The translations under genes were made by a program, and so were the position numbers. 38,696 nucleotides of DNA, taken from a virus. The stretch's first letter is position 1. Each line of letters begins with the position of its first letter. The notes below the pieces were generated by a model that did not search any database, had not been told where the DNA came from, and was given only the letters and a program-made list of their open reading frames with translations. This document shows positions 13,196 through 38,696 of this stretch, piece by piece. The stretch spans positions 1 through 38,696 of the IMG/VR virus record IMGVR_UViG_3300045988_140085; one strand, given 5' to 3'.

Positions 13196-13196
13196 G

Positions 13197-13598: not shown

Positions 13599-13721
13599 AC
13601 TATAAATCTATTATCCATTCGATAAACACTACCAGTAGTCTGAGAAAGAAACAGATGAAAATTAGTGCTCCTGCGCATACTGACAGTAGCAGTAGAGTAA
13701 AAACGATCCAGTCCAGTATCA

Positions 13722-15645: not shown

Positions 15646-15647
15646 AG

Positions 15648-16227: not shown

Positions 16228-16715
16228 GGCTTTGCCAACTCTTTAAGTTTATCTTTAAAGTATTCGCTACGTATTTTGTACACCATAGAATGGCGTACCT
16301 TTAACTTAGGCATAATATCCTTTACGCTCAAACCTTGTTCGAGGAGGATGATAACCGCCAGTTGTATACAATGGGGGTAGTTGTATTCTACAATTTCGTC
16401 CCAAAACGTGGGGAATTTGTATTTCTCTTTTATCACCCCCATGACGGCGTCATAGTTGGGTATCTTCTGCAACTCTTTGATGGGTCGCGTCTCGAAACTG
16501 TACAGCGCGTAACGTATACGCGCTAACGGTACAGTCTCGTCCATAAGCATGGACATAGCCAATATCGAACCGTTCTTATCGTTTCGGTCCACCAAACGTC
16601 TTGCCGTCCATGAAAGATAAGGTGCGTGGCCAAACTTGGCGAGTTGCTCACATAGAGCGTACGGCACCTTGAATTTCGACATCTCTATGTAAAAAAAGTC
16701 TACTACCGGATTCAT
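16224..16715 (-). CDS. Hypothetical protein (possible C-terminal helix-turn-helix)
   Basis: ORF. Start moved to MNPVV (TAAATAGTATG, right after the primase stop). C-terminal LSVKDIMPKLKVRHSMVYKIRSEYF is HTH-like, but this is weak. Confidence 0.5.
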   Translation of the reverse strand: MNPVVDFFYIEMSKFKVPYALCEQLAKFGHAPYLSWTARRLVDRNDKNGSILAMSMLMDETVPLARIRYALYSFETRPIKELQKIPNYDAVMGVIKEKYKFPTFWDEIVEYNYPHCIQLAVIILLEQGLSVKDIMPKLKVRHSMVYKIRSEYFKDKLKELAKP

Positions 16716-16720
16716 ACTAT

Positions 16721-19054: not shown

Positions 19055-19069
19055 AGTTGTTTTTTTTTT

Positions 19070-19495
19070 TTACTTCCACACTACTACCATACTCGGAAAC
19101 GGTGCGCTATTTTGCGCGTTGCCGAATTTCAATCTACCTTTTATAAAACGTATTTCTTTCGCTTTATGGTAAATGAAATCGTGAAAATACCGCGTATCGG
19201 TCCGTGCCGGAATAAGGGCTACTACAATCGTATTAGGCTTTTGCGATTCTGTGTAACACTTCTTTACCCATTCTTTTATCGCTTTCCCGTACGGAGGGTT
19301 GCAAAACACGGTCTCCCCCTCCCAGTTTTGTTTCAAACCGTTTTCTACGACCGTGTAGAACTTCTCGCACTTAGCGTTTTCCGCAGTAGCGCACGGGTCC
19401 AACGTAAAACTGAACTCTACGTTCAGTTTATCGAAAAAGTCACGTGGGGTCGCCCATAAATCGGTAGCACTTGAAAACATTACATTAGTATTCAT
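19070..19495 (-). CDS. Phage-type DNA N6-adenine methyltransferase (Dam family)
   Basis: WATPRDFFDKLNVEFSFTLDPCA ... VFCNPPYGK ... ALIPARTDTRYF ... FIKGRLKF gives the full motif order of the phage Dam family. Confidence 0.85.
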   Translation of the reverse strand: MNTNVMFSSATDLWATPRDFFDKLNVEFSFTLDPCATAENAKCEKFYTVVENGLKQNWEGETVFCNPPYGKAIKEWVKKCYTESQKPNTIVVALIPARTDTRYFHDFIYHKAKEIRFIKGRLKFGNAQNSAPFPSMVVVWK

Positions 19496-19503
19496 TCTTT
19501 TTT

Positions 19504-19818
19504 TTACTCTAACACCTCGAACCCCTCTTTACGCACCTTACGAATAGCGTTTTTCAAATTCAACGCTTGAACGTACATGCACCCGTCGCGTACTTGCACA
19601 CGGGTTCTGGTACTGACGCCAATCTTTTTCGTCTTCTCATTATAATGATAAGAGTATTGCGCATCTATCTCGGCTACTTGCACGACCTTTGACTTTGAGT
19701 TATACTCAAACAACGTAAGACCGGGATGGCGTATTACCGTCCCCAAAAATCGGTGCTCCTGCTTTTGAGGCTTGGGCGCGACAACCGCGTCCTTTGTTTT
19801 AAGTTTATCGAGTTCCAT
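19504..19818 (-). CDS. Hypothetical protein
   Basis: 104 aa ORF, tightly packed in the operon. Confidence 0.55.
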   Translation of the reverse strand: MELDKLKTKDAVVAPKPQKQEHRFLGTVIRHPGLTLFEYNSKSKVVQVAEIDAQYSYHYNEKTKKIGVSTRTRVQVRDGCMYVQALNLKNAIRKVRKEGFEVLE

Positions 19819-19819
19819 A

Positions 19820-20014
19820 TTACTTTATATTTCCACGTTGATCTAACTCTCGAAAAATGCGTCTCTCTCCCCAATCGCCGCTAAGTAATTCACATATATG
19901 CACGTCTTTACCGTAACATAATTTGATTAACGAACAGTTATAACACGCATTGTCCCCGTCTATAAAACAAAGGGCGTGAGTGATTCCGCATATGGTTACT
20001 TTTACGTCTTTCAT
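19820..20014 (-). CDS. Small Cys-rich protein, paralog B (CxxC-x5-C-x7-C)
   Basis: 64 aa ORF. Shares MKDV.(I/V)TI.G..H.L and CxxCSL...C.......IC with the adjacent 59-aa ORF. Confidence 0.6.
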   Translation of the reverse strand: MKDVKVTICGITHALCFIDGDNACYNCSLIKLCYGKDVHICELLSGDWGERRIFRELDQRGNIK

Positions 20015-20190
20015 ACACGTTCGAAGTAAAACGATTTGTCGAGGTCTGCCCCGCTCAATTTACAGATCGGATCGGTCCAATCGTTACACACCAAACTCAA
20101 CGAACACAGATCGCAGTCGTGCGCACCGTTTGATTCAGTATATACGAGTTTATGGACCTCGCCGTCAATGGTTATAGTTACGTCTTTCAT
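20011..20190 (-). CDS. Small Cys-rich protein, paralog A, 59 aa (MKDVTITIDGEVHKLVYTESNGAHDCDLCSLSLVCNDWTDPICKLSGADLDKSFYFERV), not in the ORF track
   Basis: Hand translation. Its stop overlaps the ATG of paralog B (ATGA). It fills the gap after the polymerase gene. Confidence 0.6.
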   Translation of the reverse strand: MKDVTITIDGEVHKLVYTESNGAHDCDLCSLSLVCNDWTDPICKLSGADLDKSFYFERV

Positions 20191-20199
20191 ATCGGTTAG

Positions 20200-22251
20200 T
20201 TATTTAATGTATCGGTCAGAATAGAATCCGTCGCCTGTCGTAACAAGACCCGGTGCCCACTCGATGGGCCGCTCCATCTCTTGTATAAGGTTTGCGTACG
20301 CCTCAGCGCCATCGTCGACAAGATACCACACTTCGTCATGGACGGTACCCACACACTTATATGTGCAGTATGCGTTTTGTACGCGACGCATAATATCGAC
20401 CAGTATGTCGCGTGCTATCGCCTGTACAATGTTCTCCGTCAACACTCCGCCCCATAGCTTCGTCCGCACGGCGTGTTCTCCGCCTCGGGAGTAATCGAGG
20501 TAATACAAATCGTGCCGTTCGTCCATGTGCACGCCTTTATAGTATAAGGCACGCCCGCTGGGTAAAGTAATCGAAGCGGTTCGACCGTCATACTTAAAGA
20601 CGAGACGCACGTTATCGACAACGGTTACACGGCATACGCTCGATCTCAAAGATTCACGGAACGCACGCTCCAGCCTACGCCACAAATCGCAAATTTCGGG
20701 GTTTGCTCCACGCCATTTACGCACGATCTCCGTAACTTTTTCAAGCCCTACCGTGCGGAAAAAGTCCGGCGCAACGCGGTCGATTGCGTTCGGACCCCCG
20801 CCAAACCCCAACCCGAGTTCCGCGCACTTACCCATCTGTCGCTCCGGCATACCTTTGTGAACCTCCGGGATGTTGAACATACGCTCGGCTGAACGCGAAT
20901 ATATATCCTCTTTGTTGATGAAAGCGTTCATGCGCCATTTGCATTGCGCAAGCCACGCCGTTACGCGCGCTTCGATCTGCGAAAGGTCTGCACACACGAA
21001 GTCCTTACCCGCTCCGTAGATGCACAAACGCAGATGCTTACGCAGGTGGTCGTAGCTTTGTACCTTGGACAGGTCTGTCGACGTGTCGTCTCCTCCGTGT
21101 GCAAAATTTTGCAACTGCACGCCGCGACTACTCCAGCGGCCCGTGTGGGCGCCGTGTCCTACGAATTCACCATGCAGACGGCCGTCCGGGCAAATTCGCT
21201 CGCGGGCCGTTTTGATCTTCGAAAAGGCGGCCCCGGTGGCTTGATCGCGCAACTCCAAAATAGGGTGCGTGACCCCCTCGCGTGCCTTTTTGTTGAGGGA
21301 CGAGAGTGTCACCCCGCACGAGGCTAAAGCGGCCTGCACCTGCTTCGTAGATCGCAAATTCTCTACGCCGTACAGTCGTCGCGCCTCCTCGCCTGCATCC
21401 GTTGCGTATTTATGCGCGAGTGTCTCGATCTGCGTGGCGAGGTCCATATCGAACGGCACTCCATCGAAGTTCATGTAAAATGTAAACTGCATTACGAAAC
21501 ACTCGATGTTCGGAAGCGGAGACATAATTTTATATGCCTGTCGCATTACCTCCACGTCCGAAACTGCGTACAGTTTGAACAATAAGGTACGTTCGATTTC
21601 GATTATCTCCTGCCCGTATTGCATGACAGATTTTACCATAGGACTGTTGTGCAGACCTTGCACATATTCTAGACACACGCGCAGGTGCTCCGCCGTTTCG
21701 ACGTCCCGCACGTCTTCGTTATATCTGCCTACACTCACCGATTTTTCGAACGACTCCGAAAAACGTTCTTTCATTTCGTTATACTGGGTGTCAGTAGGTA
21801 CGCCGAACAAGTCCATCGAATCGGCGGGTGCGGCTTTCTTTACGGGTTTTGCGTAATGCAACATCTGTTCCGGCGAGGCTTTGGCCTGCGTTTTGAGTAC
21901 GTTGGCAAGAAAGCCCAACTTACGGGGCAAGCCGTAGTATGCCGCAACGTATGCGGTATCATACCAGTCACACAAACGCGTGTCGATACCTAATACATGG
22001 ATCGCAATCGCCGCATCGAACTCGGCATTATGCGCAACTTTTAACGTATCGTAGTCCTCGATTGCTTTGTATACCTCCTCCGGCATTTCACGAGACGTAC
22101 ACGCCGTCTCGTCATTAAACGCCCACGAAATAAGCGTCATTTCCGTAGACGCATGGCGAGCATACCTATGGGACCCGACGTCCTGCACGTCCAACTCCGA
22201 ACGTGTCTCGAAGTCAAGAAACAGAATTTGTTTATAGTTCTTGCGTATCAT
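20200..22251 (-). CDS. Family A DNA polymerase with 3'-5' exonuclease domain
   Basis: ExoI LFLDFETRS; motif A CADLSQIEARV; motif B RQMGKCAELGLGFGGG; motif C GTVHDEV. Start at MIRKNY (ATGA overlap with the upstream gene). Confidence 0.9.
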   Translation of the reverse strand: MIRKNYKQILFLDFETRSELDVQDVGSHRYARHASTEMTLISWAFNDETACTSREMPEEVYKAIEDYDTLKVAHNAEFDAAIAIHVLGIDTRLCDWYDTAYVAAYYGLPRKLGFLANVLKTQAKASPEQMLHYAKPVKKAAPADSMDLFGVPTDTQYNEMKERFSESFEKSVSVGRYNEDVRDVETAEHLRVCLEYVQGLHNSPMVKSVMQYGQEIIEIERTLLFKLYAVSDVEVMRQAYKIMSPLPNIECFVMQFTFYMNFDGVPFDMDLATQIETLAHKYATDAGEEARRLYGVENLRSTKQVQAALASCGVTLSSLNKKAREGVTHPILELRDQATGAAFSKIKTARERICPDGRLHGEFVGHGAHTGRWSSRGVQLQNFAHGGDDTSTDLSKVQSYDHLRKHLRLCIYGAGKDFVCADLSQIEARVTAWLAQCKWRMNAFINKEDIYSRSAERMFNIPEVHKGMPERQMGKCAELGLGFGGGPNAIDRVAPDFFRTVGLEKVTEIVRKWRGANPEICDLWRRLERAFRESLRSSVCRVTVVDNVRLVFKYDGRTASITLPSGRALYYKGVHMDERHDLYYLDYSRGGEHAVRTKLWGGVLTENIVQAIARDILVDIMRRVQNAYCTYKCVGTVHDEVWYLVDDGAEAYANLIQEMERPIEWAPGLVTTGDGFYSDRYIK

Positions 22252-22661
22252 CGTTTTGTAATCTCCTCTATTACTTTGTAAATAAATGCGGATCGCTGTG
22301 CGTACCTGAGTTCGTAATATACCGCATTGAGCAACATACAAGCGTTCTTTACACTCAGTTGTTCCAAAGCGTTCAATTTTGCTTTATCTACGTTATATTG
22401 ACGTTGCGTTTCTTTCCACACCATTACGTTAACAGGGTTGTTCCATGTGGCTACGACGGCCCCGCGGCTATGTATAACCGCGTTGTTCTCGAACTCATGC
22501 GCTACTATTGCACCCGGTACCGCGTAAGGATTGACTTTAGCGTTGTAAAGCACATGCGTACCTTTGGTACTATCGGTCAGATCATCGAGATTATCCAAAC
22601 GTAAGTAATGATACCCGTATTCGTTCCGATACATGTAGCATAAATAACCCATCTCTTTCAT
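22248..22661 (-). CDS. Hypothetical protein
   Basis: ORF. Start moved to MKEMGY, which carries the conserved leader ttaaaaattaaacgtATG. Confidence 0.55.
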   Translation of the reverse strand: MKEMGYLCYMYRNEYGYHYLRLDNLDDLTDSTKGTHVLYNAKVNPYAVPGAIVAHEFENNAVIHSRGAVVATWNNPVNVMVWKETQRQYNVDKAKLNALEQLSVKNACMLLNAVYYELRYAQRSAFIYKVIEEITKR

Positions 22662-22684
22662 ACGTTTAATTTTTAAGAAATTTG

Positions 22685-22734
22685 CACGTTGTGCCGTCCC
22701 GCCCGGCGAGGCTTTCGCCTCTCTATGCAACGTG
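22685..22734 (-). promoter_or_regulatory. Structured intergenic element: outer stem cacgttg/caacgtg enclosing gaggc-gaaa-gcctc (GNRA-type tetraloop hairpin)
   Basis: Read directly in the 128-nt gap between the SSB gene and the next gene. Terminator or processing-site candidate. Confidence 0.4.
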
Positions 22735-22789
22735 TCCCTTTTTAAAAAGGTAAGTCGCCGTTATCGTTTTCGATAGGTGCGCCCGGTTT

Positions 22790-23389
22790 TCAGGCGTATT
22801 CTTCGAGGTCGATATAATCGTCGACGTTGTTCGACGATCCGGCGATACGTTCACCGTCGGCATACTTCACCACAGCGTGAACATTGCAACCGATGCCCTG
22901 CGCGGTGGAGTTGTAATACGTCCAGAACGATACGTTTGCAATGATGTAATCGCCATCCTCCAGACGTTCGTCGGAAAGGTTTTCCACCGACACGTTCGGC
23001 ATGGGCACACCGTTTATAATCATACGGCGTTGCATGTCCGATACCAACGGGCGGAAATTCTTGGACGCTACTTTGAGCATCATATACCCGCGAAACGCTT
23101 CTTTGCCGTCGTTCATATCGGCGAACTCGTCACCGTCAACCCAGCAGTTATTTTTAGGGTTGATCGCTTTCGCGTTCTTGCCTTTGAATCCTTTCGACTG
23201 AAGTTCTGCGAACGCTTCGGCGAAACGGTCGTTGATCTGTTTGACTTTGTCCTCGTCCGTCTTAGGCACGAGGATAATTGCGTTGTACTTGGGGTCGCCC
23301 TCCACACCCTTTACTGCCTTTTTCTCGAAAAGACCTGCGGGGTACACGACACGGCACACGGGTGCGCCCTTAATTTGAAATCTGTCCAT
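22790..23389 (-). CDS. Single-stranded DNA-binding protein, T7 gp2.5-like (DUF2815-type)
   Basis: 199 aa. The N-terminal pattern (YPAGLFEKKAVKGVEGDPKYNAIILVPK) and the acidic aromatic C-terminal tail (NNVDDYIDLEEYA) are typical of phage SSBs. Confidence 0.65.
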   Translation of the reverse strand: MDRFQIKGAPVCRVVYPAGLFEKKAVKGVEGDPKYNAIILVPKTDEDKVKQINDRFAEAFAELQSKGFKGKNAKAINPKNNCWVDGDEFADMNDGKEAFRGYMMLKVASKNFRPLVSDMQRRMIINGVPMPNVSVENLSDERLEDGDYIIANVSFWTYYNSTAQGIGCNVHAVVKYADGERIAGSSNNVDDYIDLEEYA

Positions 23390-23421
23390 ACGTTTAAATT
23401 GTTTAATTGGTTTGAAATGTG

Positions 23422-23853
23422 TTATGCGTTTTTAAGCGCGTTAATGTAGTACTCTTTGAGACGTTTTTGTCCCTCGTCGTCATCCTCCGAGATGAAAATA
23501 TGGGCGAGAGTAAGCACGTTTTTGTCCGTAACGTTCAGCGTTACGCCGTTGCTCACCTCAAACTGCAACATTATGCCTTGCACGAAGACCTGTTCGTGCA
23601 AATCCATGCAGTCTTTTACATAGTCGTGCAGGTCTTTGAGTGCGTCGGCCTCGTCTGCCTCCCCGATCAAGGCCTCCCACAGACCTTTAGACTGTTTGAT
23701 CGTTTCGATCAGTCCGATGACGTGGCAGGCCGTCGATACGTCGGGATTCGGGAACTTTTCGACCGTGTTCCCGATCTTAACCTCCAAAGCGCCGTTTTCG
23801 TACTCAACGAATTTTGCGCTCATAAGAGCGTTCAAATCATAATAGCTTTTCAT
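23422..23853 (-). CDS. Hypothetical protein
   Basis: 143 aa ORF with the conserved leader aattaaacgtATG. Confidence 0.55.
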   Translation of the reverse strand: MKSYYDLNALMSAKFVEYENGALEVKIGNTVEKFPNPDVSTACHVIGLIETIKQSKGLWEALIGEADEADALKDLHDYVKDCMDLHEQVFVQGIMLQFEVSNGVTLNVTDKNVLTLAHIFISEDDDEGQKRLKEYYINALKNA

Positions 23854-23861
23854 ACGTTTAA

Positions 23862-24599
23862 TTAAATTAAAGGATTTATAACGTTAGCGAGTTTACATAA
23901 CTCGACAATACGTTCGGAATGGTTTAAGTAGTAATACGAACTTTTATGCAACAACGTAACCGGGAGTTCGTACCGACGGTCCGGCGTGTAGCCCGCACGA
24001 GTAAAAAGACCAATAAGATACTCTACGTTGCAATGGTTTTGGTAAGACTTACGTCGGTGAAACTCGTCGCGCGGCACCTCGTCCGTGAAAAATAAGTCCA
24101 TCATGTCGCCCGTTGATAGCGTGTTATTACACTCTATATAAATATGATCGAAACGTTTGTCTTTCAACGCACGAATGATGTATTTTTCGTCCACAATTTC
24201 GTTAAAATCGGTAAGCCAAAGGATCGTTTGCGGTTCAGCGTATTCCGACCGTGCACACCTTTGTATCTCGAAGCCCACGCACGGGACGTCATGCCGCAAG
24301 GGGATGATCTTAACGGTGTATTGGAACTCATTGGAACACAGCACTTTAACGTCACCCGGGGTAAGGCTGGAGAATGCCAAGAAAGGCCATTTATGGGCTA
24401 ATCTGTCGGCTGTCTCGGGGGTGCAGTAGGTAGGTAAGCCCCCCACCTTATCGAGGCATTTTGTGTGGTCCGTGTGGTTGTGAGTGAGTAATACATGCTC
24501 CCCTTTGGGCACCTCGGGCCACCCTACGTCAATAATCAGAAAGTCGTCGATTGATGCGGTGTTACCGCTACTACCGGAGTGTACTATATTTACGTTCAT
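23862..24599 (-). CDS. Metallo-beta-lactamase-fold hydrolase (possible nuclease)
   Basis: HxHxDH motif LLTHNHTDHTK near the N-terminus; later His/Asp ligands (RHDVPCVGF, LTDFNE). Confidence 0.75.
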   Translation of the reverse strand: MNVNIVHSGSSGNTASIDDFLIIDVGWPEVPKGEHVLLTHNHTDHTKCLDKVGGLPTYCTPETADRLAHKWPFLAFSSLTPGDVKVLCSNEFQYTVKIIPLRHDVPCVGFEIQRCARSEYAEPQTILWLTDFNEIVDEKYIIRALKDKRFDHIYIECNNTLSTGDMMDLFFTDEVPRDEFHRRKSYQNHCNVEYLIGLFTRAGYTPDRRYELPVTLLHKSSYYYLNHSERIVELCKLANVINPLI

Positions 24600-24602
24600 A
24601 CC

Positions 24603-25079
24603 TTATACGTTTAACTTTGCACCGCTTGCGTTTTCGATCGCTTTGAGGACTTGATCCAATTTGTTGGCGTCACGTTCGGACAAAGCCGTGAACAGGTTTG
24701 TCAGTACCTTACGACGCAAGGCGTGGAATGTAGGATTTGCGAACGCATTAACGAGGTCACGACCGCCCCGTTTCTCGTGCACAACACGGAACTCACGCAC
24801 GTTAAATTCGCTCATATCGTCCCCGTTAGGGAACTCGACACAAACGGTAAACCAGCCTTTGAACCCCGGCAGGCATTCGTCCGGCGACTCGACCCCGGAC
24901 GAAAATACATTGCGTATTAGATCATTGATACCCTCGACGCTACCGCACTCCATGATGGTACGGGGTATATCAGCACACCCGAAACCGTACCCTATATATT
25001 TTAATGGTGTGTAGTACTTGCGCACGCTCGTTTGGATATAATTTGCGTGCACCGTTACCGTTAAGACGATGTTATTCAT
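24603..25079 (-). CDS. Hypothetical protein
   Basis: 158 aa ORF. Confidence 0.55.
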   Translation of the reverse strand: MNNIVLTVTVHANYIQTSVRKYYTPLKYIGYGFGCADIPRTIMECGSVEGINDLIRNVFSSGVESPDECLPGFKGWFTVCVEFPNGDDMSEFNVREFRVVHEKRGGRDLVNAFANPTFHALRRKVLTNLFTALSERDANKLDQVLKAIENASGAKLNV

Positions 25080-25106
25080 GGCTTAATTATGTTAAATTAT
25101 TAGGGC

Positions 25107-25132
25107 CCGGCGGTCCGATCAAAGACCGCCGG
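25107..25132 (-). terminator. Hairpin; sense strand reads ccggcggtc-tttgatcg-gaccgccgg (9-bp stem, 8-nt loop)
   Basis: Read directly in the gap between 25145 and 25079. The loop is identical to that of hairpin 3751..3774, but the stem sequence differs. Confidence 0.6.
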
Positions 25133-25144
25133 ACAAGATGCGCA

Positions 25145-25702
25145 CTACTGGATGCCGTGCGTCTCGGCTATCGCACGCAGGCGGGCCGTTTCTTGCGCTT
25201 TTTGGTAGAGTGCATCCAACTGATCCGCTACGACCGGATAGTGATTGAACGCGGGTCCGCGCTTGCACTCCGTGACAAAACAGCAATAGTTGCCATACCT
25301 CAGACAATACCCACCGCTCTCCACCGTAATCGTCGCACCTTTATCGACCAATTCGGTCCATTGTTTTATGATGTTAATAAACGTTCGCGGTACTTTTTTC
25401 CATCGTGCCGCCTCGCCGATTAATCCGCCCGCACTCGACATCTTTTGTACAAGCCAGTCGATAGTAGGCTCTTTGGGGTATTGGTACGTCTTACTCCCGT
25501 TGCGCGTTTCGATCTTTATACCGGACCGCGCTACGCGCGGGAAATTGGTGTACCAATCATTATACTCCTGCGAAACTTTCGCAGGAAATAGACATACATC
25601 CACACCGTACTCGTCGGATAGCTTTTTAAGACGTTCGTACAAAGCGCGTGATTCCTCGGACGTATCCGGGATTATCGGGTTCCCTTTCTTCGCTACCACC
25701 AT
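25145..25702 (-). CDS. Hypothetical protein
   Basis: ORF. Start moved to MVVAKKG, because the longer N-terminal extension overlaps a better micro-ORF. Confidence 0.5.
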   Translation of the reverse strand: MVVAKKGNPIIPDTSEESRALYERLKKLSDEYGVDVCLFPAKVSQEYNDWYTNFPRVARSGIKIETRNGSKTYQYPKEPTIDWLVQKMSSAGGLIGEAARWKKVPRTFINIIKQWTELVDKGATITVESGGYCLRYGNYCCFVTECKRGPAFNHYPVVADQLDALYQKAQETARLRAIAETHGIQ

Positions 25703-25800
25703 GATATAAACGATGCTATAATAATAACTACTACGATTACATATAGCAACCCTACGCACATAAAGAATAGAATTGCAAAATCTTTTTGGTCTTCCTCCAT
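25693..25800 (-). CDS. Micro-ORF, 35 aa membrane peptide (MEEDQKDFAILFFMCVGLLYVIVVVIIIASFISWW), not in the ORF track
   Basis: TAAGGTATG start context right after the upstream stop. Its TGGTGGTAG end overlaps the downstream ATG. Fills a 100-nt gap. Confidence 0.5.
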   Translation of the reverse strand: MEEDQKDFAILFFMCVGLLYVIVVVIIIASFISWW

Positions 25801-25803
25801 ACC

Positions 25804-26325
25804 TTAATCTTTTGTTACCATCTCCCACGAATCAGTGAGCGAATTGTGTTTGCCGTACTTGGTTGCGGATAGGAACATGGCACCGGGGGTACGTTTTTCG
25901 AACATCTTTTGTGCGCTGTACACGTCCGGTGCTTCTACGCTGGCGTGGTACCCGTTGCAATCCGCAGGATCGGCCTTTGTATAGATTATATCATAGCCGA
26001 ATTTGTCGTACAGTCGCCCAAACTCTTTGTAATGATCCTCTACGATCTGCCGCGCGGCCTCTTTGAGAATGCACACGCGCGTTGAGGGTGTCGAATGCTC
26101 CCCAACTGCATCTAACAAACGGTGGTCCGTGGGGCAGGGCAGTCGGCCCCATTGCGAAATAGACGTCACCCGTGTGTTAAATGCTTCGTCATTCTCCCAC
26201 GCTCGTACCAACTCTTTAGTCGTCCATCGCTCCAATACGATCCGCTTGTGCAAGCCGTTCACGAACTGTGCGAGATACTCGCGGTGCGTGCATTTGTGAT
26301 TAAGATAGTCCTGACGTGTGTACAT
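25804..26325 (-). CDS. Hypothetical protein
   Basis: 173 aa ORF with leader cttaaacactcaaaactATG. Confidence 0.55.
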   Translation of the reverse strand: MYTRQDYLNHKCTHREYLAQFVNGLHKRIVLERWTTKELVRAWENDEAFNTRVTSISQWGRLPCPTDHRLLDAVGEHSTPSTRVCILKEAARQIVEDHYKEFGRLYDKFGYDIIYTKADPADCNGYHASVEAPDVYSAQKMFEKRTPGAMFLSATKYGKHNSLTDSWEMVTKD

Positions 26326-26424
26326 AGTTTTGAGTGTTTAAGTTTGCGGGCAATATCGCCCGGTTCGTGCGTTACGCGGTTTCGCTCCGCCGTGTTGCGT
26401 CTTACGCAAATAACGCTACCCCCT

Positions 26425-27618
26425 TTACTCTCCGACGGTGAAACGTATTACGTTCTGCACGTCGTCGAGGCCCTGCACGCTCTCGGCGTTGTCGATGATG
26501 ATCGGTATCTTGTCGATGGTACCCGTCATCACTCGCGCCGTCTCCAATATCCGCACGCATATCTCTACGCGCTTGGCCCGGTTAACGCTTTTGAGCGGCA
26601 CACCTTTGTAGGTGAGGGTGCAGGTGGACGAGGTGCGCCCGGTTGTCTTGGCCGTCGTCTCGGTTATGATCTGCACGTCGTCCGGCAGGGCGGGACGGAC
26701 TGCCGCCGCATCAGCGGCCCGGATTTGTTCCTCCAGCGCGGCCATCTGCTCGTCGATGTCCTGCACACGACGGCGTGCGCCGGACGCCCGCGATATGATC
26801 GCTTCGGCCTCATTGATGGCCGCCGTCTCAGCATTGTAGGCTTTGAGCCGCTCGGTTATCCTCTCCACCTCCGCCCGCATACCTTGATAGGCTTCGTTGG
26901 CGGCGTCCCGCTCGCGGCGCACGGCGTCGATCTCGGCGGCTGTGTACTGCTTGCCGCACGTCGGGCAGACTGTCGGCAACGTCCCGCCGATCCGGTTAAG
27001 CGTCGCAACGTGCTCACCTGCTCGCGCCATGTAGTCCGTTTCGGCCTCGGTCAGCGGCTCGACGGTCCGGGTAGGCACGGCCACGGTGGTTAGCGCGTAT
27101 TGCTCGGCCGCGCGGCGTTCTTTGCGCAGGGCATCACGCTCGCGCCGGAGGTTTGTCGCTTCGTCGTTCTCAACGAGGGACGCACGCGCTAACAGGCGGC
27201 GTAACTGCTCGGCGGTAAGCGCCGGGTCGGTCAAAAGGTTTGCGTCAGCACACGCGACTACGAGGTCAATAGGTATGCCGAAACGCTGGGCGAGGATGTC
27301 GGTAAACTCGGCTTGCGTAACCACCTCATCGCACAAATATAATTGTGTCGATCCCTTGGGGGTGAGTACACGCCGTATAGTCGTGCCGTCGGAGGGCCAG
27401 CCCGTAATCGTTACACAGGTGTTGACACTTGGGCTTGGGTCCATACCTGTCTGCGGGTCTATGCGCCGCGGTTGGAACCCGTTGAGCGTTCTACCCGTGA
27501 GGGCGAAGACCCATGCGTTAACCTGCGTTGTTTTGCCCGCCCCGTTAGGCATCGTGCGGGATGTGAATGGCGCGTTAAAGACATCGAACGCGCCAAATAG
27601 TACCATTGATAGTTTCAT
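26425..27618 (-). CDS. Mini Rad50/SbcC/SMC-like ATPase with a central CxxC zinc-hook-like motif
   Basis: Walker A MPNGAGKTT at the N-terminus. A long Arg/Glu/Ala coiled region has CPTC (26956..26967) at its midpoint. C-terminal IPIIIDNAES is Walker-B-like. Confidence 0.7.
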   Translation of the reverse strand: MKLSMVLFGAFDVFNAPFTSRTMPNGAGKTTQVNAWVFALTGRTLNGFQPRRIDPQTGMDPSPSVNTCVTITGWPSDGTTIRRVLTPKGSTQLYLCDEVVTQAEFTDILAQRFGIPIDLVVACADANLLTDPALTAEQLRRLLARASLVENDEATNLRRERDALRKERRAAEQYALTTVAVPTRTVEPLTEAETDYMARAGEHVATLNRIGGTLPTVCPTCGKQYTAAEIDAVRRERDAANEAYQGMRAEVERITERLKAYNAETAAINEAEAIISRASGARRRVQDIDEQMAALEEQIRAADAAAVRPALPDDVQIITETTAKTTGRTSSTCTLTYKGVPLKSVNRAKRVEICVRILETARVMTGTIDKIPIIIDNAESVQGLDDVQNVIRFTVGE

Positions 27619-27647
27619 ACGTTTAAGTGTTTAAGAGTTTTAAAAGA

Positions 27648-27678
27648 GTCCCCGGCCCGGCACCTCCAAGCCGGGGAC
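27648..27678 (-). terminator. Rho-independent terminator; sense strand reads gtccccggc-(13 nt)-gccggggac followed by tcttttaaaa
   Basis: 9-bp GC stem plus a U-rich tail, 60 nt after the stop of 27740..28345. The conserved leader motif follows immediately. Confidence 0.7.
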
Positions 27679-27739
27679 GTAGTAAGGTATGCACCGCCTG
27701 CGAAAGCGAATGGTTTTTGATGCACACCTATTTACCTCT

Positions 27740-28345
27740 CTACTGCGCGTCCGGGTCGATACCGGCGGCGATCAGCATTTGCCGCAGACGCTCGGCTTCG
27801 CTCTGCATCTTGACGGCCTTGCTCTCGACCTCGGCCAGTCGTGCCGATACGCTCGCGCGGCCCGCGCTCTTAGGCAGTTCGAACGACATTACGACCTCTT
27901 TTGCGGCCTCGACGTCGGCGTCGAACTGTTCCGCTTCCTCTTTGCGGGCCTGCAACTCGGCTTCGAGGCGGGCGATCTCGGCGACGATCTTCTCGCGGTT
28001 CTTCTCCTCGGCCTGCACGAAAGCGGCGGCACGTTTGGCGGCGATCTCGGCGGCACAGTCGGCGGGGATTTCGATGTCCTCGACCACACCACGCACGAGT
28101 TTTTCGGTCCCATCTTCCTGCTTGGTGAGCGTTGCGCGGAAGAAATTCCCGGTTCGCTTCTCGAAGTTGAGCGCGGCGGCACTCAATGCGGGCAGTTTGG
28201 CGCGGAGAATCGCGGTTGCTTTCTGCACCTCGGGCGTTGCGTTTTCGGCGGCCTCTTTTTCAGCGTGTTCTGCGGGGATCGGCTCGGTCTGCGGCTTCAT
28301 CTCCTGCAATTCGTTCGGGTTCTGTACTTTCGTTTCGTTTTTCAT
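27740..28345 (-). CDS. Hypothetical coiled-coil protein (Ala/Glu/Lys-rich)
   Basis: 201 aa ORF. It is the only frame with a sensible start and leader (aaaaacatttacaggtATG); the antisense ORFs are GC artefacts. Confidence 0.6.
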   Translation of the reverse strand: MKNETKVQNPNELQEMKPQTEPIPAEHAEKEAAENATPEVQKATAILRAKLPALSAAALNFEKRTGNFFRATLTKQEDGTEKLVRGVVEDIEIPADCAAEIAAKRAAAFVQAEEKNREKIVAEIARLEAELQARKEEAEQFDADVEAAKEVVMSFELPKSAGRASVSARLAEVESKAVKMQSEAERLRQMLIAAGIDPDAQ

Positions 28346-28396
28346 ACCTGTAAATGTTTTTAAGTGATTAATAATTAGACGTCTTTACGTCGTTGT

Positions 28397-28444
28397 GGCG
28401 GGCCGGGGTGTTACTCCCCGCGGGACGGTTTGCCGTGACCCGCC
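28397..28444 (-). other. GC-rich multi-hairpin element (outer ggcggg/cccgcc; inner cgggg-tgttact-ccccg and acgg-tttg-ccgt)
   Basis: Read directly in the 104-nt gap between 28450 and 28345. Confidence 0.4.
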
Positions 28445-28449
28445 GTACC

Positions 28450-28884
28450 TTATTTGTTGTACTCCCGGTCGAATGCACGGAGTAAATAGTAGTCCTTTTT
28501 GTAGTACTTGCTTACTATTAGCACCCTTTGCGACGTATTGAGGCCTATGGCCATACCTGCTACACCTTGAACGTACGTTACTAACGGCAGGTCTTCGTGT
28601 ATCGCTGTTTTGTACGCTTCGTCGTACTCCTTGAACGTTTTGAATCTTACCTCTTTTGTCGAGGCGCTACGCACCACGATTGCAAACTCCCCCTCGGCTG
28701 TTGTGACGATCTTTGCGCGTCGTATCGGCTCGTACTCCTTTTTGCACCTCTCGCAGAACTCCGTTACGGTCATCTGTTCGTCGTATAACCGCGAATAGTC
28801 CATTACGTTGTACAGTCGGGCCGTCGTGTCATACGTTACACGCACTAACGTGCTACGCTTTTTGTTGATATAATACGTTGTCAT
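28450..28884 (-). CDS. Hypothetical early protein
   Basis: 144 aa ORF. Confidence 0.55.
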   Translation of the reverse strand: MTTYYINKKRSTLVRVTYDTTARLYNVMDYSRLYDEQMTVTEFCERCKKEYEPIRRAKIVTTAEGEFAIVVRSASTKEVRFKTFKEYDEAYKTAIHEDLPLVTYVQGVAGMAIGLNTSQRVLIVSKYYKKDYYLLRAFDREYNK

Positions 28885-28890
28885 ACCTTG

Positions 28891-29235
28891 TTAGTCTAAG
28901 ATAAAACAAACTACGTTATACATGTGCTTTTCGTCCGGGTCCCGCACCGCTATCACGGCGTCAGCCACATGCCCGAGGTAGGCAAGCCTACCTAAAAGTA
29001 TCTCGGATTGATCGCTTTGATCTACGATGCCCACCACCGTGCATTTGGTCTTTTCGTCCATTGCCTGCCGTATTCGTGGCGTGCAAGTGAGCACTACGCC
29101 GTCGCCGTCCTCCGGCGTTATCTCCGTCTCGACCCCCGCCGTACCTTTGAGCAGGTCCCCGGCGCTCAACAGTGCGTAATTCTCTGGTTCGATGTTGAAC
29201 TCTTTGGTGATCTTCAAAAACTCGATTGCTTTCAT
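28891..29235 (-). CDS. Hypothetical early protein
   Basis: 114 aa ORF with leader cacttaaacacttaaacgtATG. Confidence 0.55.
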   Translation of the reverse strand: MKAIEFLKITKEFNIEPENYALLSAGDLLKGTAGVETEITPEDGDGVVLTCTPRIRQAMDEKTKCTVVGIVDQSDQSEILLGRLAYLGHVADAVIAVRDPDEKHMYNVVCFILD

Positions 29236-29274
29236 ACGTTTAAGTGTTTAAGTGTTAGAGCCGGGCCACGGTTT

Positions 29275-29652
29275 TCATTGCATACAACGCTCGATTAACG
29301 CCCACGCCCGTATATGCGCCCTTACTTGCACGTCCATCCACGTTTCGCGTGCGTTGGGGGCCTTGCGTCCATAGTCGGTACGTCTCAACTCGGACGGCGT
29401 GCAAAGCGTTTCAGCGATTTCTCCGTCGTAGATCATTGCACAACCGCCATAACAATACTGTTCCCAGCCGTTCGCACCGTTAAGTACAGTTTTTTCGGTT
29501 AGCGGGGGCACCGAGTCTGACCCCTCCCGATCCCGTACTATCTCCTCGTACCTGTCTAACAGACCCTTGGCGATCTCTTTCACGCCCTTGTCCCATGCTG
29601 ACCGGGGTTTAATGCCCTCCAGTCGTACCCGTATCTTCTGCATCTCTTTCAT
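29275..29652 (-). CDS. Hypothetical early protein (first gene of the leftward operon)
   Basis: 125 aa ORF with leader cttaaactatttaaaaacttaaacacttacaactATG. Confidence 0.55.
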   Translation of the reverse strand: MKEMQKIRVRLEGIKPRSAWDKGVKEIAKGLLDRYEEIVRDREGSDSVPPLTEKTVLNGANGWEQYCYGGCAMIYDGEIAETLCTPSELRRTDYGRKAPNARETWMDVQVRAHIRAWALIERCMQ

Positions 29653-29725
29653 AGTTGTAAGTGTTTAAGTTTTTAAATAGTTTAAGTATATCGGGGTGTC
29701 GTTATCTTCTCCCCCTTTCGTTACA

Positions 29726-29756
29726 CAAATATACAACGAAAAAACGGAATCACAAA
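29726..29756 (-). promoter_or_regulatory. Leftward (early) promoter, Bacteroidota type: TTTG-N19-TATATTTG
   Basis: Sense strand reads ttatTTTGtgattccgttttttcgttgTATATTTGtg. Perfect match to -33 TTTG / -7 TAnnTTTG with 19-nt spacing, about 70 nt upstream of ATG 29652. Confidence 0.65.
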
Positions 29757-29956
29757 ATAAAATTACGGAAAAATGTGATAAAATCGTGAAATAAAACGGT
29801 TTTGTGTACTATACACCCCTTGCAGACCTTTTTTGTTTACTTTCCTGCCCTTGCATACCTTTTTTGTTTTGGGTCCGGGCCGAAACGGTTTACTTTACTT
29901 TACAGGGTGTTAAGTAAAAAGACGAAAATCGTTAAGTAAATGACAAATGATTTCGC

Positions 29957-30782
29957 TGTAAATCAGTAAGTTACAAAGGTGCTTACTTAACCCCCTTGAG
30001 TATCAACGAGTTACACGGGAAAATGAACTCCCTGTAAATCAAGTAATTACAAGGGTCATTTTGTAACTACTTGTCGCACAGTCGGTTAGACGGGAAGATT
30101 AACCCGCTAACAATCAAGCAGTTACAAGGGTCTAATTTCGCGGAATCAAATTCGAAAAATGTGAGTCCCTGTAAATCAATACGTTACAACCTAAAAATTC
30201 CACGAAATCGAACACCTCCGGGAAGATGCAAAAACCTAACTTTTTCACGACTTTTCGACCCCCCAAGGGCCATTTTCCACGAATAAGTTAGGAATTACAT
30301 TAAAAAATTACCCCTTGAAATTTATAAACGTTTGATAATCATAGGTTTGCAGAGATTTTATTTTCCGGCAAATGGCATGAAATCGCTGTAAAGGTCTGTA
30401 AATCAATACGTTAATCTTCCGCTGTAACGCCCTGTAAATCAAGGCGTTACAAAAGGCCTCGTAACGTATTGATACTCAGCGGGTTAATCTTCCGCGGCAA
30501 CGCCCTGAGTATCAAGTAGTTGAAAAATGGCCCTTGTAACTTGTTGAAAGTCAGCGAGTTCATTTTCCCGGGTAATTCACTGAGTATTAGCAACTTAGAG
30601 AGACCGATTATCAGGCAGTTACAGCCCTTGATAATCAGGCAGTTACGAAAATTGACCGACTAAATTGGTAGACCAATTTTTACTCAGAAGCTAATGCGTT
30701 GATAACCAAGTAGTTAATAGAATTAGAAAAAACTATAAGCTATGCAAATAGTTCTAAACTGCTTGATTTATAGTGAGTTACG
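29957..30782. repeat. Array of at least 15 copies of a 19-bp iteron TG(T/A)RWATCARNNNGTTAC(A), in both orientations
   Basis: Forward copies start at 29957, 29997, 30033, 30108, 30170, 30397, 30433, 30506, 30581, 30605, 30629, 30700 and 30764. Reverse copies lie at 30062..30080, 30460..30478 and 30535..30553. Confidence 0.8.
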
Positions 30783-30886
30783 GCGATACGGCGGCCCGTC
30801 GGCCCGGCGATACGGCGCGAAAGGCTGGCCGCCGAGACGCCGCCCCGCTGTTTCAATAATTGAACTTGCTCCCCGTGGAACACTCT

Positions 30887-30946
30887 CGACGTATCGACGT
30901 ATCGACGTATCGACGTATCGACGTATCGACGTATCGACGTATCGAC
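30887..30946. repeat. Perfect 8-bp tandem repeat cgacgtat x 7.5
   Basis: Read directly. Flanked by GC-rich blocks carrying related cgatacgN octamers in the opposite orientation. Confidence 0.95.
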
Positions 30947-31078
30947 TGAATGGGAATGCGTATGAGATAAATACGATACGGCGATACGACGGCCCGACGG
31001 GCCGGCGCGAAATCGAATCGCCGGGGCAAACAGGCGGCGGGGGGTCGGCCCGCTGACCGGGCTCCCCGACGTATCGTC

Positions 31079-31262
31079 AAAAAAATTTTTTAAAAGTACC
31101 ACCGGAATAGTAGGTCTAAAAATTTTTAAAAGTACAATTAATAGGGTAGGCCTAAAAATTTTTTAAATGGTAAAATTGGAGTAGCGTATACGTTTAATTT
31201 TTAAATGGTAAAATTGGAGTAGCGTATACGTTTAATTTTAAAACGGCAAATTTGGAGTAGCA
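31079..31262. repeat. AT-rich tandem repeats, about 5 units of 36-38 bp; the two central units are an exact 42-nt duplicate (31160..31201 and 31198..31239, period 38)
   Basis: Read directly; units begin near 31079, 31117, 31154, 31196 and 31234. Confidence 0.85.
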
Positions 31263-31406: not shown

Positions 31407-31437
31407 TTTGAAATGTCGGAAAATTTTATTATCTTTG
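31407..31437 (+). promoter_or_regulatory. Rightward (late) promoter, Bacteroidota type: TTTG-N19-TATCTTTG
   Basis: cgaaagTTTGaaatgtcggaaaattttatTATCTTTGaat is a perfect consensus match with 19-nt spacing, 22 nt upstream of ATG 31460. Confidence 0.65.
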
Positions 31438-31459: not shown

Positions 31460-31678
31460 ATGAAAAAAGTTCAAAAACGCTTACAGGACCTTACGACCAT
31501 GATCCTCAACCATGAGGACCCTACGTCGGACGAGTGCGCCGCGTATATCGCTGAACTCAAACTGTTGCGTGAGTTGATCGCCACATGGAAAGCGTTCAAC
31601 GGGTACGAGGGGGACCTCGACCCGGACGCCGACCCCGGAGACAGGCCCGAGCGGAAATCGACGCAGGTGTGGGAGTAG
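31460..31678 (+). CDS. Hypothetical small protein upstream of the large terminase (a small terminase role is possible but unsupported)
   Basis: ORF. Start moved to MKKVQK because ATG 31439 would lie at or upstream of the predicted transcription start. Confidence 0.5.
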   Translation: MKKVQKRLQDLTTMILNHEDPTSDECAAYIAELKLLRELIATWKAFNGYEGDLDPDADPGDRPERKSTQVWE

Positions 31679-31705: not shown

Positions 31706-33136
31706 ATGGGACTTACAACGAAAATACGGCTCACGAAAAAACAGAACGAAGCGATACGGCTTTTGGACGACAGACACAAAGACCTCATACTCTTGCTGGG
31801 GGGCTCGGGATCGGGGAAATCTTTTGTCGAAGTCTACAAGGTCATACGCGACGCACTGCGGTACAAAGCCCCGTGTCTTATCGCCCGTGACAAACTGATC
31901 GACTTGACCACAGGTGTGATCGACCAAATCGTTCCGGTGATCCTCCAGTTGATCGCAGAGGAGAACGGGCAGGAGAGATGGGACAAATGGACCATCGACG
32001 GGTTGAAGTTCGCCGTTTGGTCGGACAAACGAACCAAACTTACGTTCGCAACAGGCGGTTATGTAAGGTTCGCAGGTCTGTCGAAACGTGACATATCGGA
32101 GAGCGGTTCGGATAAAATCCTCTCGCCGTCGTGGTTGCACATCGCAATCGAGGAGGTGTCGGAGGTCGATTGGCCGATCATTGAGTTACTTATCACACGT
32201 TTGCGTTTTCAGACCGAAGGTGTGACAAATAAACTCATAATGACGGAGAACCCGCCGTCGATGTATCACTTCTCGTACAAACGTTTTTTGGAGAACCAAC
32301 GCGAGGACGGATCGGAGTTGCCGGAGGAGGAACGCGCACGACAAGCGTACCTTTTCATGCAACCAAAAGACAACGAGGAGAATCTTTCGGAGAACTATAT
32401 ACGTAACCTTTCGCAACTGTCCGGCGCGAATCGGGAACGTTTCTATTTGGGACAGTTCCAAGACGCAGAGCAGGGAGAGATATTCAAACGTATAAGTTGG
32501 ACGAAAGTCCTGCCGCGCAAGTGCGAGTGGGAGCGGTTGTGCATATACACCGACCCGACCCCGCTTACAGGTACGGACCACAGCATTTGGGCGGACTATA
32601 AGGCAAGCGTGCTTTGCGGTCTGTTTGACGGTAACGCATACGTGCTCGACATACGCATCGTAAAAGGCTCTACGTTGCAAATGCTTAACAACATCAAGCA
32701 GTTGTGGGACATGTCGCCAAACCAATCCATAACAGAGGTATGGATGGAGAAAAAGCAGATACCGTCGGACTTCGATCAGGTCATGCGTAACTTTGCGCTT
32801 ACAACCGGGTGGATGTGCCCCGTAAGGTATGACACGCGCAACTTCGGTGACAAGACCGCCGCAATCGAGACGTTCCTCGAACCGCTGTTCGAGGACGAGC
32901 ATATATTTTTTAACAACGCATTCCGCGATACGGAGCGTGGCCGACAGTTGCAACATCAGATACTTAAGTTCTCGCGTAAGCAGAACAAGAACAGGCACGA
33001 CGATATACCGGACGCAATCATGCGTTGCGTAACGAAATTAATGGGTAAAAAGGGACGTAAGCAACGTATGAAAGACGCACCGTTGGTTATGTTCGCAAGA
33101 CCCGGTTACATTCACGATATAGTAAACAATGGATAA
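31706..33136 (+). CDS. terL: Terminase large subunit
   Basis: Walker A LLLGGSGSGKSF, Walker B-like WLHIAIEEVSE, and a C-terminal nuclease region with ...CIYTDPT... and NRHDDIPDA acidic motifs. Confidence 0.85.
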   Translation: MGLTTKIRLTKKQNEAIRLLDDRHKDLILLLGGSGSGKSFVEVYKVIRDALRYKAPCLIARDKLIDLTTGVIDQIVPVILQLIAEENGQERWDKWTIDGLKFAVWSDKRTKLTFATGGYVRFAGLSKRDISESGSDKILSPSWLHIAIEEVSEVDWPIIELLITRLRFQTEGVTNKLIMTENPPSMYHFSYKRFLENQREDGSELPEEERARQAYLFMQPKDNEENLSENYIRNLSQLSGANRERFYLGQFQDAEQGEIFKRISWTKVLPRKCEWERLCIYTDPTPLTGTDHSIWADYKASVLCGLFDGNAYVLDIRIVKGSTLQMLNNIKQLWDMSPNQSITEVWMEKKQIPSDFDQVMRNFALTTGWMCPVRYDTRNFGDKTAAIETFLEPLFEDEHIFFNNAFRDTERGRQLQHQILKFSRKQNKNRHDDIPDAIMRCVTKLMGKKGRKQRMKDAPLVMFARPGYIHDIVNNG

Positions 33137-38107: not shown

Positions 38108-38696
38108 TGAGGGTATCAGAAAAGAAACAGGTTCTTACGACCAGCGCGGTCAATCTGAACGGGGTTCAGATTCCGACTGACTGTATCGACTGGAGTGTCT
38201 ACGACAAGAACCCCGTACTTTTGTACAATCGTGCAAACGAGAGTCACAAAGGTGTGGTAGTAGGTAAGGTTCTGAACCGCGAACGTGTAGGGGATGCGAT
38301 TGTTGCAAACCTCGCTTTCATGGAACGGAACGAGGACGCGGATATCGCGTTCGAAAAGTACGATCAAGGCGTCCTGCCTCACGTTTCTGTGGGTGGATAT
38401 GCACGCGGCGAGGAAAACTCGGAGGGCGTATTTATCTGCGACAAGTACATGATTCGTGAGGTATCGCTCGTAGCGTTCCCCGCAAACATCGAATGTGCTG
38501 TGTTGGACGACAACAACGTACTCGCATCAGAACAGCCGATCGTGGAAGGTATGCGAACGGGCAAAACCGAAATCCGTTATGTAACGTTGAGTTGGGACGG
38601 TGATATGGGAACCATCGTGAACGCATCCGAGGAAACGCAGGCCGCAGAGACCAACGCATCCGAGGAAACGCAGGCCGCAGAGACCAACGCATCCGA
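38107..38696 (+). CDS. HK97-family prohead (capsid maturation) protease, S78 type. The ORF is not terminated in the window and continues in frame at base 76 into 113..1429. Not in the ORF track.
   Basis: Hand translation: MRVSEKKQVLT...NESHKGVVVGKV (His), HVSVGGYARG (Ser), IREVSLVAFPANIE (family hallmark). Its ATG overlaps the upstream stop (TAATG). Confidence 0.8.
   Translation, partial: MRVSEKKQVLTTSAVNLNGVQIPTDCIDWSVYDKNPVLLYNRANESHKGVVVGKVLNRERVGDAIVANLAFMERNEDADIAFEKYDQGVLPHVSVGGYARGEENSEGVFICDKYMIREVSLVAFPANIECAVLDDNNVLASEQPIVEGMRTGKTEIRYVTLSWDGDMGTIVNASEETQAAETNASEETQAAETNAS
38620..38696 (+). repeat. In-frame 33-bp tandem repeat (aacgcatccgaggaaacgcaggccgcagagacc, encodes NASEETQAAET); 2 full copies plus a diverged partial copy continuing at 76..85
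   Basis: Exact tandem copies at 38620..38652 and 38653..38685; the same text is seen at 1..66. Confidence 0.9.

Follow-up and report, generated by a model that had tools for sequence, protein, structure and literature searches.

A modular array of mirrored repeats as a candidate replication origin in an uncultured human gut phage

A long imperfect inverted repeat made of recurring short words, set in a gene-free gap between two divergent gene blocks, raises the question of what such a structure does for the phage that carries it. We addressed this question for the IMG/VR virus record IMGVR_UViG_3300045988_140085, the whole of which (38,696 bases) is referred to here as the window, where a first-pass annotation had described a symmetric field of iterons and proposed that it was a bidirectional origin or a looping or cruciform-forming regulatory platform. 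The field covers ~850 bp (~29934..30783) and contains 15–20 long sites, the iterons, and 6–9 copies of a second word, denoted here the G-box. We regard it as probably the bidirectional replication origin of the phage, working like the origins of the Staphylococcal pathogenicity islands (SaPIs). The origin proposal gained support from the divergent promoters around the field, from minima of DNA stability and GC skew within it, from the conservation of its architecture among relatives, and from a SaPI Rep-type initiator-helicase encoded by the same genome, in which the field is the only iteron-bearing region.

The inverted repeat was recovered by an independent repeat finder as two arms of 127 nt, 73% complementary and 327 nt apart:

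30003..30129 (no strand), left arm of the long imperfect inverted repeat, from the repeat finder and arm comparison
30457..30583 (no strand), right arm of the same repeat, from the repeat finder and arm comparison

The match of 68 of 91 positions previously obtained by hand was reproduced without gaps at the same coordinates and extends to 93 of 127 positions over the longer arms, with near-exact blocks at both ends (14/14 and 15/16, as originally described) and a symmetry center at 30293, which equals (30003+30583)/2. The best inverted-repeat score in 29700-30900 was 42, compared to 10.8 +/- 0.9 (maximum 13.5) in 60 dinucleotide-preserving shuffles. The symmetry had also been said to continue outward through one more iteron on each side, but this pair (29997-30015 and 30581-30599) matches at only 5 of 19 positions as reverse complement, the two sites being direct copies instead; the inner pair (30108-30126 and 30460-30478) matches at 12 of 19. 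Because the arms are only 73% identical and the spacer is 327 nt long, extrusion of a cruciform from duplex DNA is unlikely, although the separated single strands would pair strongly as a long hairpin (z = -8.9).

The arms do contain iterons, as had been noticed, but are not simply built from them: the repeating unit is a module of ~75 bp that consists of an iteron, a G-box (GGGAARATKAAC), another iteron and a spacer. The left modules form a tandem array, and the right ones have the inverted orientation:

29934..30160 (+), left array of three tandem ~75-bp modules, with starts at 29934, 30010 and 30085 and spacings of 76 and 75 bp
30384..30606 (-), right array of three inverted ~75-bp modules, with starts at 30384, 30457 and 30532 and spacings of 73 and 75 bp

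The first left module (29934) is degenerate. When the arms are compared, the G-box is the best conserved part (27/28), ahead of the iterons (69%) and the spacers (59%), and the orientation of the G-boxes in the window is ++ on the left and ---- on the right:

30017..30030 (+), left G-box, GGGAAAATGAACTC
30092..30105 (+), left G-box, GGGAAGATTAACCC
30357..30367 (-), innermost right G-box, CGGAAAATAAA on the minus strand, found by a relaxed G-box scan and adjoining the AT-rich center
30410..30421 (-), right G-box, from the G-box scans
30483..30494 (-), right G-box, from the G-box scans
30558..30569 (-), right G-box, from the G-box scans

The iterons share the 21-nt consensus CTGnnAATCAAnnnGTTACAA, in which the conserved core, CTGnnAATCAAnnnGTTAC, is asymmetric, and were scored with a position weight matrix (PWM):

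29956..30189, six 21-nt left iterons (29956+, 29996+, 30032+, 30061-, 30107+, 30169+), PWM scores 20.8-28.2 bits
30396..30773, nine 21-nt right iterons (30396+, 30432+, 30459-, 30505+, 30534-, 30604+, 30628+, 30699+, 30753-), PWM scores 20.7-28.2 bits

The excess of iterons held up genome-wide. The matrix, built from 15 iterons of 21 nt and applied at a cut-off of 13 bits, matched the genome 18 times, with 16 of these matches in 29956-30773, compared to a mean of 0.43 and a maximum of 2 in shuffled sequences, and the word ATCAANNNGTTA occurs seven times against 0.31 expected, six times within the field. No iteron-like cluster was found elsewhere in the genome, including 13100..29700 and the stretch downstream of the primase-helicase gene described below, and a scan of 2.9 million viral contigs for the iteron word was uninformative, with at least 120 single matches of chance level. 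The iterons show no helical phasing (R <= 0.34). The partial palindromes TGTAA-N9-TTACA at 29957, 30033, 30170 and 30433 are present as described; however, only four or five iterons, a minority of the copies, have this form, which does not favor the dimeric protein on palindromic sites that had been inferred from them.

The field encloses the following element:

30282..30361 (no strand), AT-rich center, 76% AT, a candidate DNA-unwinding element that contains both 30293 and 30314

No other 80-bp stretch of the genome is less stable. On the circularized genome, the cumulative GC skew reaches its minimum at 30314, 21 bp from the symmetry center, and its maximum at 12265. Circularization follows from the 75-bp overlap between the ends of the window, which indicates a circularly assembled genome of ~38.6 kb; the overlap (1..77 and 38620..38696) sits within a coding 33-bp tandem repeat, in an open reading frame (ORF) running from 38107 off the window end, so that the repeat copy number at the join is uncertain.

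The field lies inside a 1.8-kb gene-free gap. To its left, the minus-strand block (13722..29652) encodes an SNF2 helicase, a Dps-like protein, the primase-helicase, a methyltransferase, DNA polymerase A, a gp2.5-like single-stranded DNA-binding protein and an SbcC-like protein; to its right, the plus-strand block begins with a 72-aa gene (31460..31678) and the gene of the large terminase TerL (31706..33136; family matches Terminase_3 and Terminase_6N), followed by structural genes. The gap is bracketed by complete, divergent TTTG-N19-TAnnTTTG patterns, which we take to be promoters of the Bacteroidota type from the -33 TTTG / -7 TAnnTTTG consensus, and a further box lies in the center:

29726..29756 (-), leftward (early) promoter, TTTG-N19-TATATTTG, from a pattern scan; precedes the first early gene, with its start codon at 29652
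31407..31437 (+), rightward (late) promoter, TTTG-N19-TATCTTTG, from a pattern scan; precedes the 72-aa gene and TerL
30342..30349 (+), TAGGTTTG box, a possible -7 promoter element that lacks a proper -33 partner

The last of these, already reported in the first-pass annotation, was found again and reads AAGGTTTG in two of the three close relatives aligned. No DnaA box (TTATNCACA, at most one mismatch) occurs between 29653 and 31370, and the 36 matches genome-wide are near chance (27.9 expected, and 5 of 100 shuffles gave at least as many). A field devoid of DnaA boxes is as expected for an origin served by a self-loading helicase.

A candidate for such a helicase is encoded in the early block. 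None of the encoded proteins had been thought an obvious iteron binder, but the C-terminal domain (CTD) of the primase-helicase, which we refer to as PriRep and which the first-pass annotation had itself named for a binding test, has a predicted fold that matches the origin-binding CTD of SaPI1 Rep1:

16721..19054 (-), PriRep-type primase-helicase, 777 aa, phrog_256 at 4.9e-194, the proposed initiator and replicative helicase
16724..16990 (-), PriRep CTD, aa 689-777, a predicted winged helix and the proposed origin-reading domain

Residues 4-294 of this polypeptide form the primase (DNA primase phrog_9765, 1.5e-68), and a VapE-like ATPase domain is detected at 2.2e-59. In a phmmer search against PDB, residues 343-688 matched SaPI1 Rep1 (7PDS_A, chain residues 30-366; 7PDS is the Rep1-DNA complex) with E 2.5e-57. 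Sequence alignment to Rep1 stops short of the last ~90 residues. For the segment aa 660-777, an AlphaFold2 model derived from an alignment of 83 sequences reached pLDDT 86 and pTM 0.79, and Foldseek placed chains A-F of 7PDS as its top six matches (TM 0.66-0.72, probability 1.0), followed by winged-helix DNA binders. The SaPI Reps are self-loading initiator-helicases in which the C-terminal winged-helix domain binds the iterons, and in PriRep5 of SaPI5, a 790-aa primase fusion, deletion of the CTD (676-790) abolishes ori binding; the SaPI ori has an AT-rich center with iterons on each side in opposite directions (PMC9371898).

By analogy, the PriRep winged helix would bind the opposed repeat sets on either side of the AT-rich center (30282..30361), the center would then melt, and one helicase ring would load per side, with replication starting here and forks leaving both ways, co-oriented with the divergent early and late transcription. 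The origin would have been expanded in this lineage into composite modules of ~75 bp (iteron, G-box, iteron).

Comparison with related phages, which the first-pass annotation had proposed, showed that the architecture of the arms is conserved. Related TerL loci numbered 36 in one metagenome scan, many of them in assemblies with a human gut label; a scan of viral contigs contributed eight more. G-box orientation follows one rule in the window and in all seven close relatives with sequence across both arms, namely + for every left box and - for every right box; the relatives show ++++(+)/----, with five right boxes in L165. Across these eight sequences the left G-boxes number 2-5 at 75-bp spacing, the right spacings are always 54, 73 and 75 bp, and the innermost boxes are 253-265 bp apart. 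The left modules, three in the window including the degenerate one, number 4-5 in the relatives, and the right modules are invariably three. Thus, the left array varies by whole modules, and the right array and the center are stable.

In lineages with a primase-helicase only 64-76% identical, neither the big modules nor the G-box occur. The iteron word still clusters in the homologous gap (3-8 copies) and mostly forms opposed sets with an AT-rich stretch between them; L150 is an example, with one - copy and three + copies on either side of an AT-rich stretch at 820-857 (-, AT-rich, + + +). The CTD is the most diverged part of PriRep between lineages (49% identity, compared to 76% in the helicase body), and one block of it, ICTxEVAREFY...GRKVADAIRRT...RFGxYGSxLAWxR, is kept in all lineages, which parallels the persistence of the iteron word across them.

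The iterons themselves might serve another protein. Their core fits the Escherichia coli integration host factor (IHF) consensus, WATCAANNNNTTR, and all ten exact matches to this consensus in the genome lie in 30001..30704 (1.19 expected); a concentration of IHF-consensus matches in the gap is also seen in other lineages. The host, which is probably a member of the Bacteroidota, could therefore contribute a bending protein of the IHF/HU type that binds the iterons, in which case the initiator may read the orientation-sorted G-boxes, with an architectural role left to the long iterons. Several iteron positions outside the IHF consensus are conserved (5' CTG, G before TT, AC after TTA) and count against a pure IHF reading. 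Family scans detected no phage-encoded HU or IHF, the remaining small ORFs having been judged by sequence reading without a family scan.

Bacteroides has a host factor of the IHF/HU family, BHFa, which E. coli IHF can replace in CTnDOT recombination in vitro (PMC2034462, PMC6606824), and at oriC, as at several plasmid origins with iterons, IHF and HU help the initiator (PMC4980987). We therefore entertain, as a doubtful but not negligible variant of the origin reading, the possibility that the iterons are amplified bending-protein sites (for example, for BHFa), interleaved at the 75-bp period with G-boxes as the true initiator sites, in a wrapped nucleoprotein origin of ~0.85 kb. Module number varies in natural populations, from 2 to 5 on one side against a constant number on the other, and this variation could adjust the strength of the origin or its dependence on the host factor.

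A number of observations weigh against the origin reading or some part of it. The 19-21-bp iterons are mostly + on both sides and are only partly opposed, and the G-box, which is properly opposed, is confined to one lineage. The field lies ~11 kb from the PriRep gene, its words are 12-21 bp long, and its location 0.9-1.7 kb upstream of the terminase gene makes a packaging role conceivable. The gap contains two more stretches of nearly the same instability as the center; the skew minimum forms a plateau that covers the whole gap (29638-31023) and is not independent evidence, because gene orientation switches at the same places. The assignment of the CTD to the Rep1 winged-helix fold comes from a predicted model, not a solved structure. 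Across lineages there is no sharp co-variation between the CTD and the repeat words, the iteron word and the CTD block being both broadly conserved, and the L006 lineage, with a CTD 49% identical, has few iteron matches and other word families.

The terminase genes prompt a different interpretation, in which the field is a packaging recognition site, pac or cosB-like, with the G-boxes bound by a small terminase subunit and the IHF-consensus iterons bending DNA for terminase assembly. The field is upstream of the TerL gene (31706..33136) and holds all ten IHF-consensus matches of the genome; opposed or two-cluster protein-binding boxes with IHF bending sites near terminase genes also characterize lambda cosB (R sites and the I1 IHF site) and P1 pac (two hexamer clusters and an IHF site); the Terminase_3 and Terminase_6N matches together with circular assembly are compatible with headful packaging; and many related contigs end in this gap. 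These ends, however, fall not in the field but in the 8-bp and 38-bp tandem arrays between it and TerL, a pattern that assembly breaks at repeats would also give. The known sites span ~100-300 bp and adjoin the cleavage site and the small terminase gene, whereas the field extends over 850 bp with 6-9 boxes, stands 0.9-1.7 kb from the terminase operon, upstream of its promoter, and is accompanied by a Rep-type initiator. No DNA-binding small terminase was found, and the 72-aa protein encoded before TerL has no family match. A packaging site would, moreover, leave the stability and skew minima unexplained and the Rep-type initiator with no other candidate origin, and we consider it quite improbable.

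A further interpretation is transcriptional control, in which the repeats would be operators of one or more phage regulators that set the switch from early to late expression, possibly by looping between the arrays. The field does lie between the divergent early and late promoters, with a TAnnTTTG-like box in its center, and a potential regulator is encoded next to PriRep:

16224..16757 (-), helix-turn-helix (HTH)-like ORF, overlapping the PriRep stop codon, with a weak HTH_23 match; an alternative or additional candidate DNA binder

This protein evolves fast (20-32% identity between lineages in which PriRep is 64-76% identical), as do lineage-specific words such as the G-box; its HTH-like segment is C-terminal. 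The model of the protein, all-helical and of medium confidence, has no significant structural counterpart; resolvase-type HTH domains match it locally, and its resemblance to extracytoplasmic function (ECF) sigma factors is faint. Small early proteins encoded next to the field (125, 114, 144 and 201 aa), which could also act as regulators, gave no family match and only chance-level PDB and H-NS coiled-coil matches. No regulator family was assigned. The 15-20 long sites and 6-9 G-boxes over 850 bp far exceed known phage switches, the iteron nearest to the early promoter is ~200 bp from it and the one nearest to the late promoter, on the right, ~630 bp, and the iteron word is conserved across lineages in which the HTH-like protein is only 20-32% identical. 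Transcriptional control appears unlikely as the explanation of the field, but a regulatory role could coexist with an origin. A centromere-like partition site of the parS, parC or sopC type, serving a plasmid-like carrier state, is suggested by the fixed-period (75 bp) tandem modules in two clusters, which resemble the 43-bp repeats of sopC and the two iteron clusters of parC. We reject this option as very improbable because the partner genes were not found: there is no ParA, ParB, ParR or integrase-type gene among the scanned ORFs, which include a minority of those in the structural block. A search of 185,579 bacterial and archaeal genomes also gave no related sequence, and the genome has the appearance of a virulent phage equipped with a complete replication set of its own.

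Viewed as an origin, the field shares four features with those of the SaPIs and departs from them in two. The initiator-helicase is of the same superfamily 3 (SF3) AAA+ type and homologous in sequence (E 2.5e-57 to Rep1), it carries a fused primase as in PriRep5, its CTD has the winged-helix fold by the predicted model, and opposed repeats, here the G-boxes, flank an AT-rich center without DnaA boxes. In contrast to the 6-12 iterons of 5-6 bp in SaPIs, the words here are a 12-14-bp G-box and a 19-21-bp iteron organized in 75-bp modules, and in place of an ori immediately downstream of rep, the field is ~11 kb away, in the gap between the divergent early and late genes. The carrier differs as well, being a complete phage, probably of a Bacteroidota host, rather than a satellite.

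Iteron plasmid and oriC-type origins (pSC101, R6K, P1) likewise combine repeated initiator sites, an unwinding element and IHF/HU-type sites that aid melting (PMC4980987). Arrays of 17-22-bp iterons beside an AT-rich unwinding element are a feature that the field shares with iteron plasmid and lambda-type origins; the DnaA boxes of such origins are absent from it. The plasmid origins rely on RepA, pi or TrfA initiators, none of which, nor any O-type family, was found here by PHROG, Pfam and NCBIfam scans of the ORFs in the replication block; they have one or two IHF sites compared to at least ten in the field, and their helicase is host DnaB, loaded by other factors. The lambda ori resembles the field in its 19-bp iterons with partial internal dyad symmetry beside an AT-rich region and in the tie between origin function and nearby transcription, but comprises four direct iterons inside the O gene, with O recruiting host DnaB through P, whereas the window encodes no O-like protein and its arrays are mirrored. 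Phage P4, as generally described, offers another parallel: its alpha protein is also one polypeptide of 777 aa that joins a primase, an SF3 helicase and a C-terminal winged-helix origin-binding domain, and its origin consists of repeated short sites in more than one cluster. The P4 enzyme is a Toprim/D5-type primase-helicase, not VapE-like, and the P4 iterons are 8 bp long (TGTTCACC), in an ori and a crr that lie 4.5 kb apart rather than in mirror arrays around one center.

The principle is familiar, and the field would be an extension of known principles, not a new one. What appears to be new is the modular 75-bp mirror array with population-level change of copy number, the density of IHF-type cores, and the occurrence of self-loading PriRep origins in uncultured gut phages. 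We know of no described origin in which a modular mirror array carries at least ten IHF-type sites, and no description of an iteron origin in a Bacteroidota phage was found in the searchable literature. The lineage is abundant in human gut metagenomes and has no cultured relative. If the origin reading is correct, it would supply a concrete pair of origin and initiator for an uncultured family of gut phages, extend the self-loading primase-helicase mechanism of the SaPIs from Gram-positive satellites to complete phages, probably of Bacteroidota, and provide a case of an origin whose size changes in steps of whole 75-bp modules. The defined pair would also be of use in replicon construction or in the engineering of such phages.

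The placement of the host in the Bacteroidota is probable on the basis of the promoter words and of distant protein matches to Bacteroides and Phocaeicola phages. The search for a host or prophage in the bacterial and archaeal genomes mentioned above was negative, a DNA similarity search of 29500-31200 against 50,697 phage records gave no match, and the best TerL match, at 40% identity, is an unannotated human faecal phage. Phocaeicola phage BD26P1, considered as a cultured comparison, proved not to be syntenic. No tRNA genes were found, and Rfam gave only sub-threshold chance matches in the gap.

To the right of the field, the gap contains two separate zones:

30781..31075 (no strand), GC-rich blocks around a (TCGACGTA)x7.6 array, where many related contigs break
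31083..31262 (no strand), AT-rich ~38-bp repeats upstream of the late promoter

The (TCGACGTA)x7.6 array occupies 30886..30946, and its GC-rich flanks carry CGGCGATACGGCG words. Many related contigs, some of them near-complete (36-38 kb), end in this zone or the next; these ends may be assembly breaks at repeats or real genome ends. The second zone holds about five copies of its repeat (2.7 clean copies at 31160..31261 according to TRF) and is the site of the least stable 150-bp stretch of the genome (31072..31221), and its repeats could be activator sites of the late promoter or an alternative unwinding element. On the other side of the field, between it and the early promoter, a 31-bp unit (TTTTGT.TAC....CCCTTGCAKACCTT) is repeated 2.2 times at 29800..29867.

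In other lineages the homologous gap carries further repeat words: TGTTCTAAATGTCC in both orientations, GTTCCACGTGGAAC palindromes, TGTTCA-N-TGAACA palindromes and TTGTTGCTATG (L006 4415..4700 and 5370..5725; L150 219..590). With several word families sharing it, the gap is a mosaic on which more than one protein probably acts, and these families suggest further lineage-specific DNA-binding proteins.

A few observations concern the gene blocks. Gad2 and Sequestin Pfam matches occur beside the SNF2 helicase gene in L140 (13266..14171, 15539..15757) and L141 (13347..14270, 15911..16126); these genes, absent from the window, are possible anti-defense cargo. The ferritin/Dps-like protein of the replication block (15181..15645, minus strand) matches PF00210 at E 1.7e-10 and a phrog annotated as 'DNA binding protein'. 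A pair of neighboring small ORFs (19820..20014 and 20011..20190, minus strand; 64 and 59 aa), Cys-rich and paralogous to each other, lies between the polymerase gene and the gene after it. A perfect 32-bp palindrome at 1439..1470 (GACACGTAGGCACATT / AATGTGCCTACGTGTC), between the ORFs 113..1429 and 1466..2059, is probably a terminator hairpin. Finally, short arrays in which an 8-bp unit is repeated in tandem (plus strand TAAGTGTT, coding strand AACACTTA) directly precede several early minus-strand start codons, at 29658..29687, 29238..29256, 27621..27640 and 23392..23423 in the window and at 2..106, 443..483 and 641..665 in the relative L004, where one array of at least 13 copies ends the contig; possible roles of these arrays are those of a leader, a translation signal or a promoter-proximal element.

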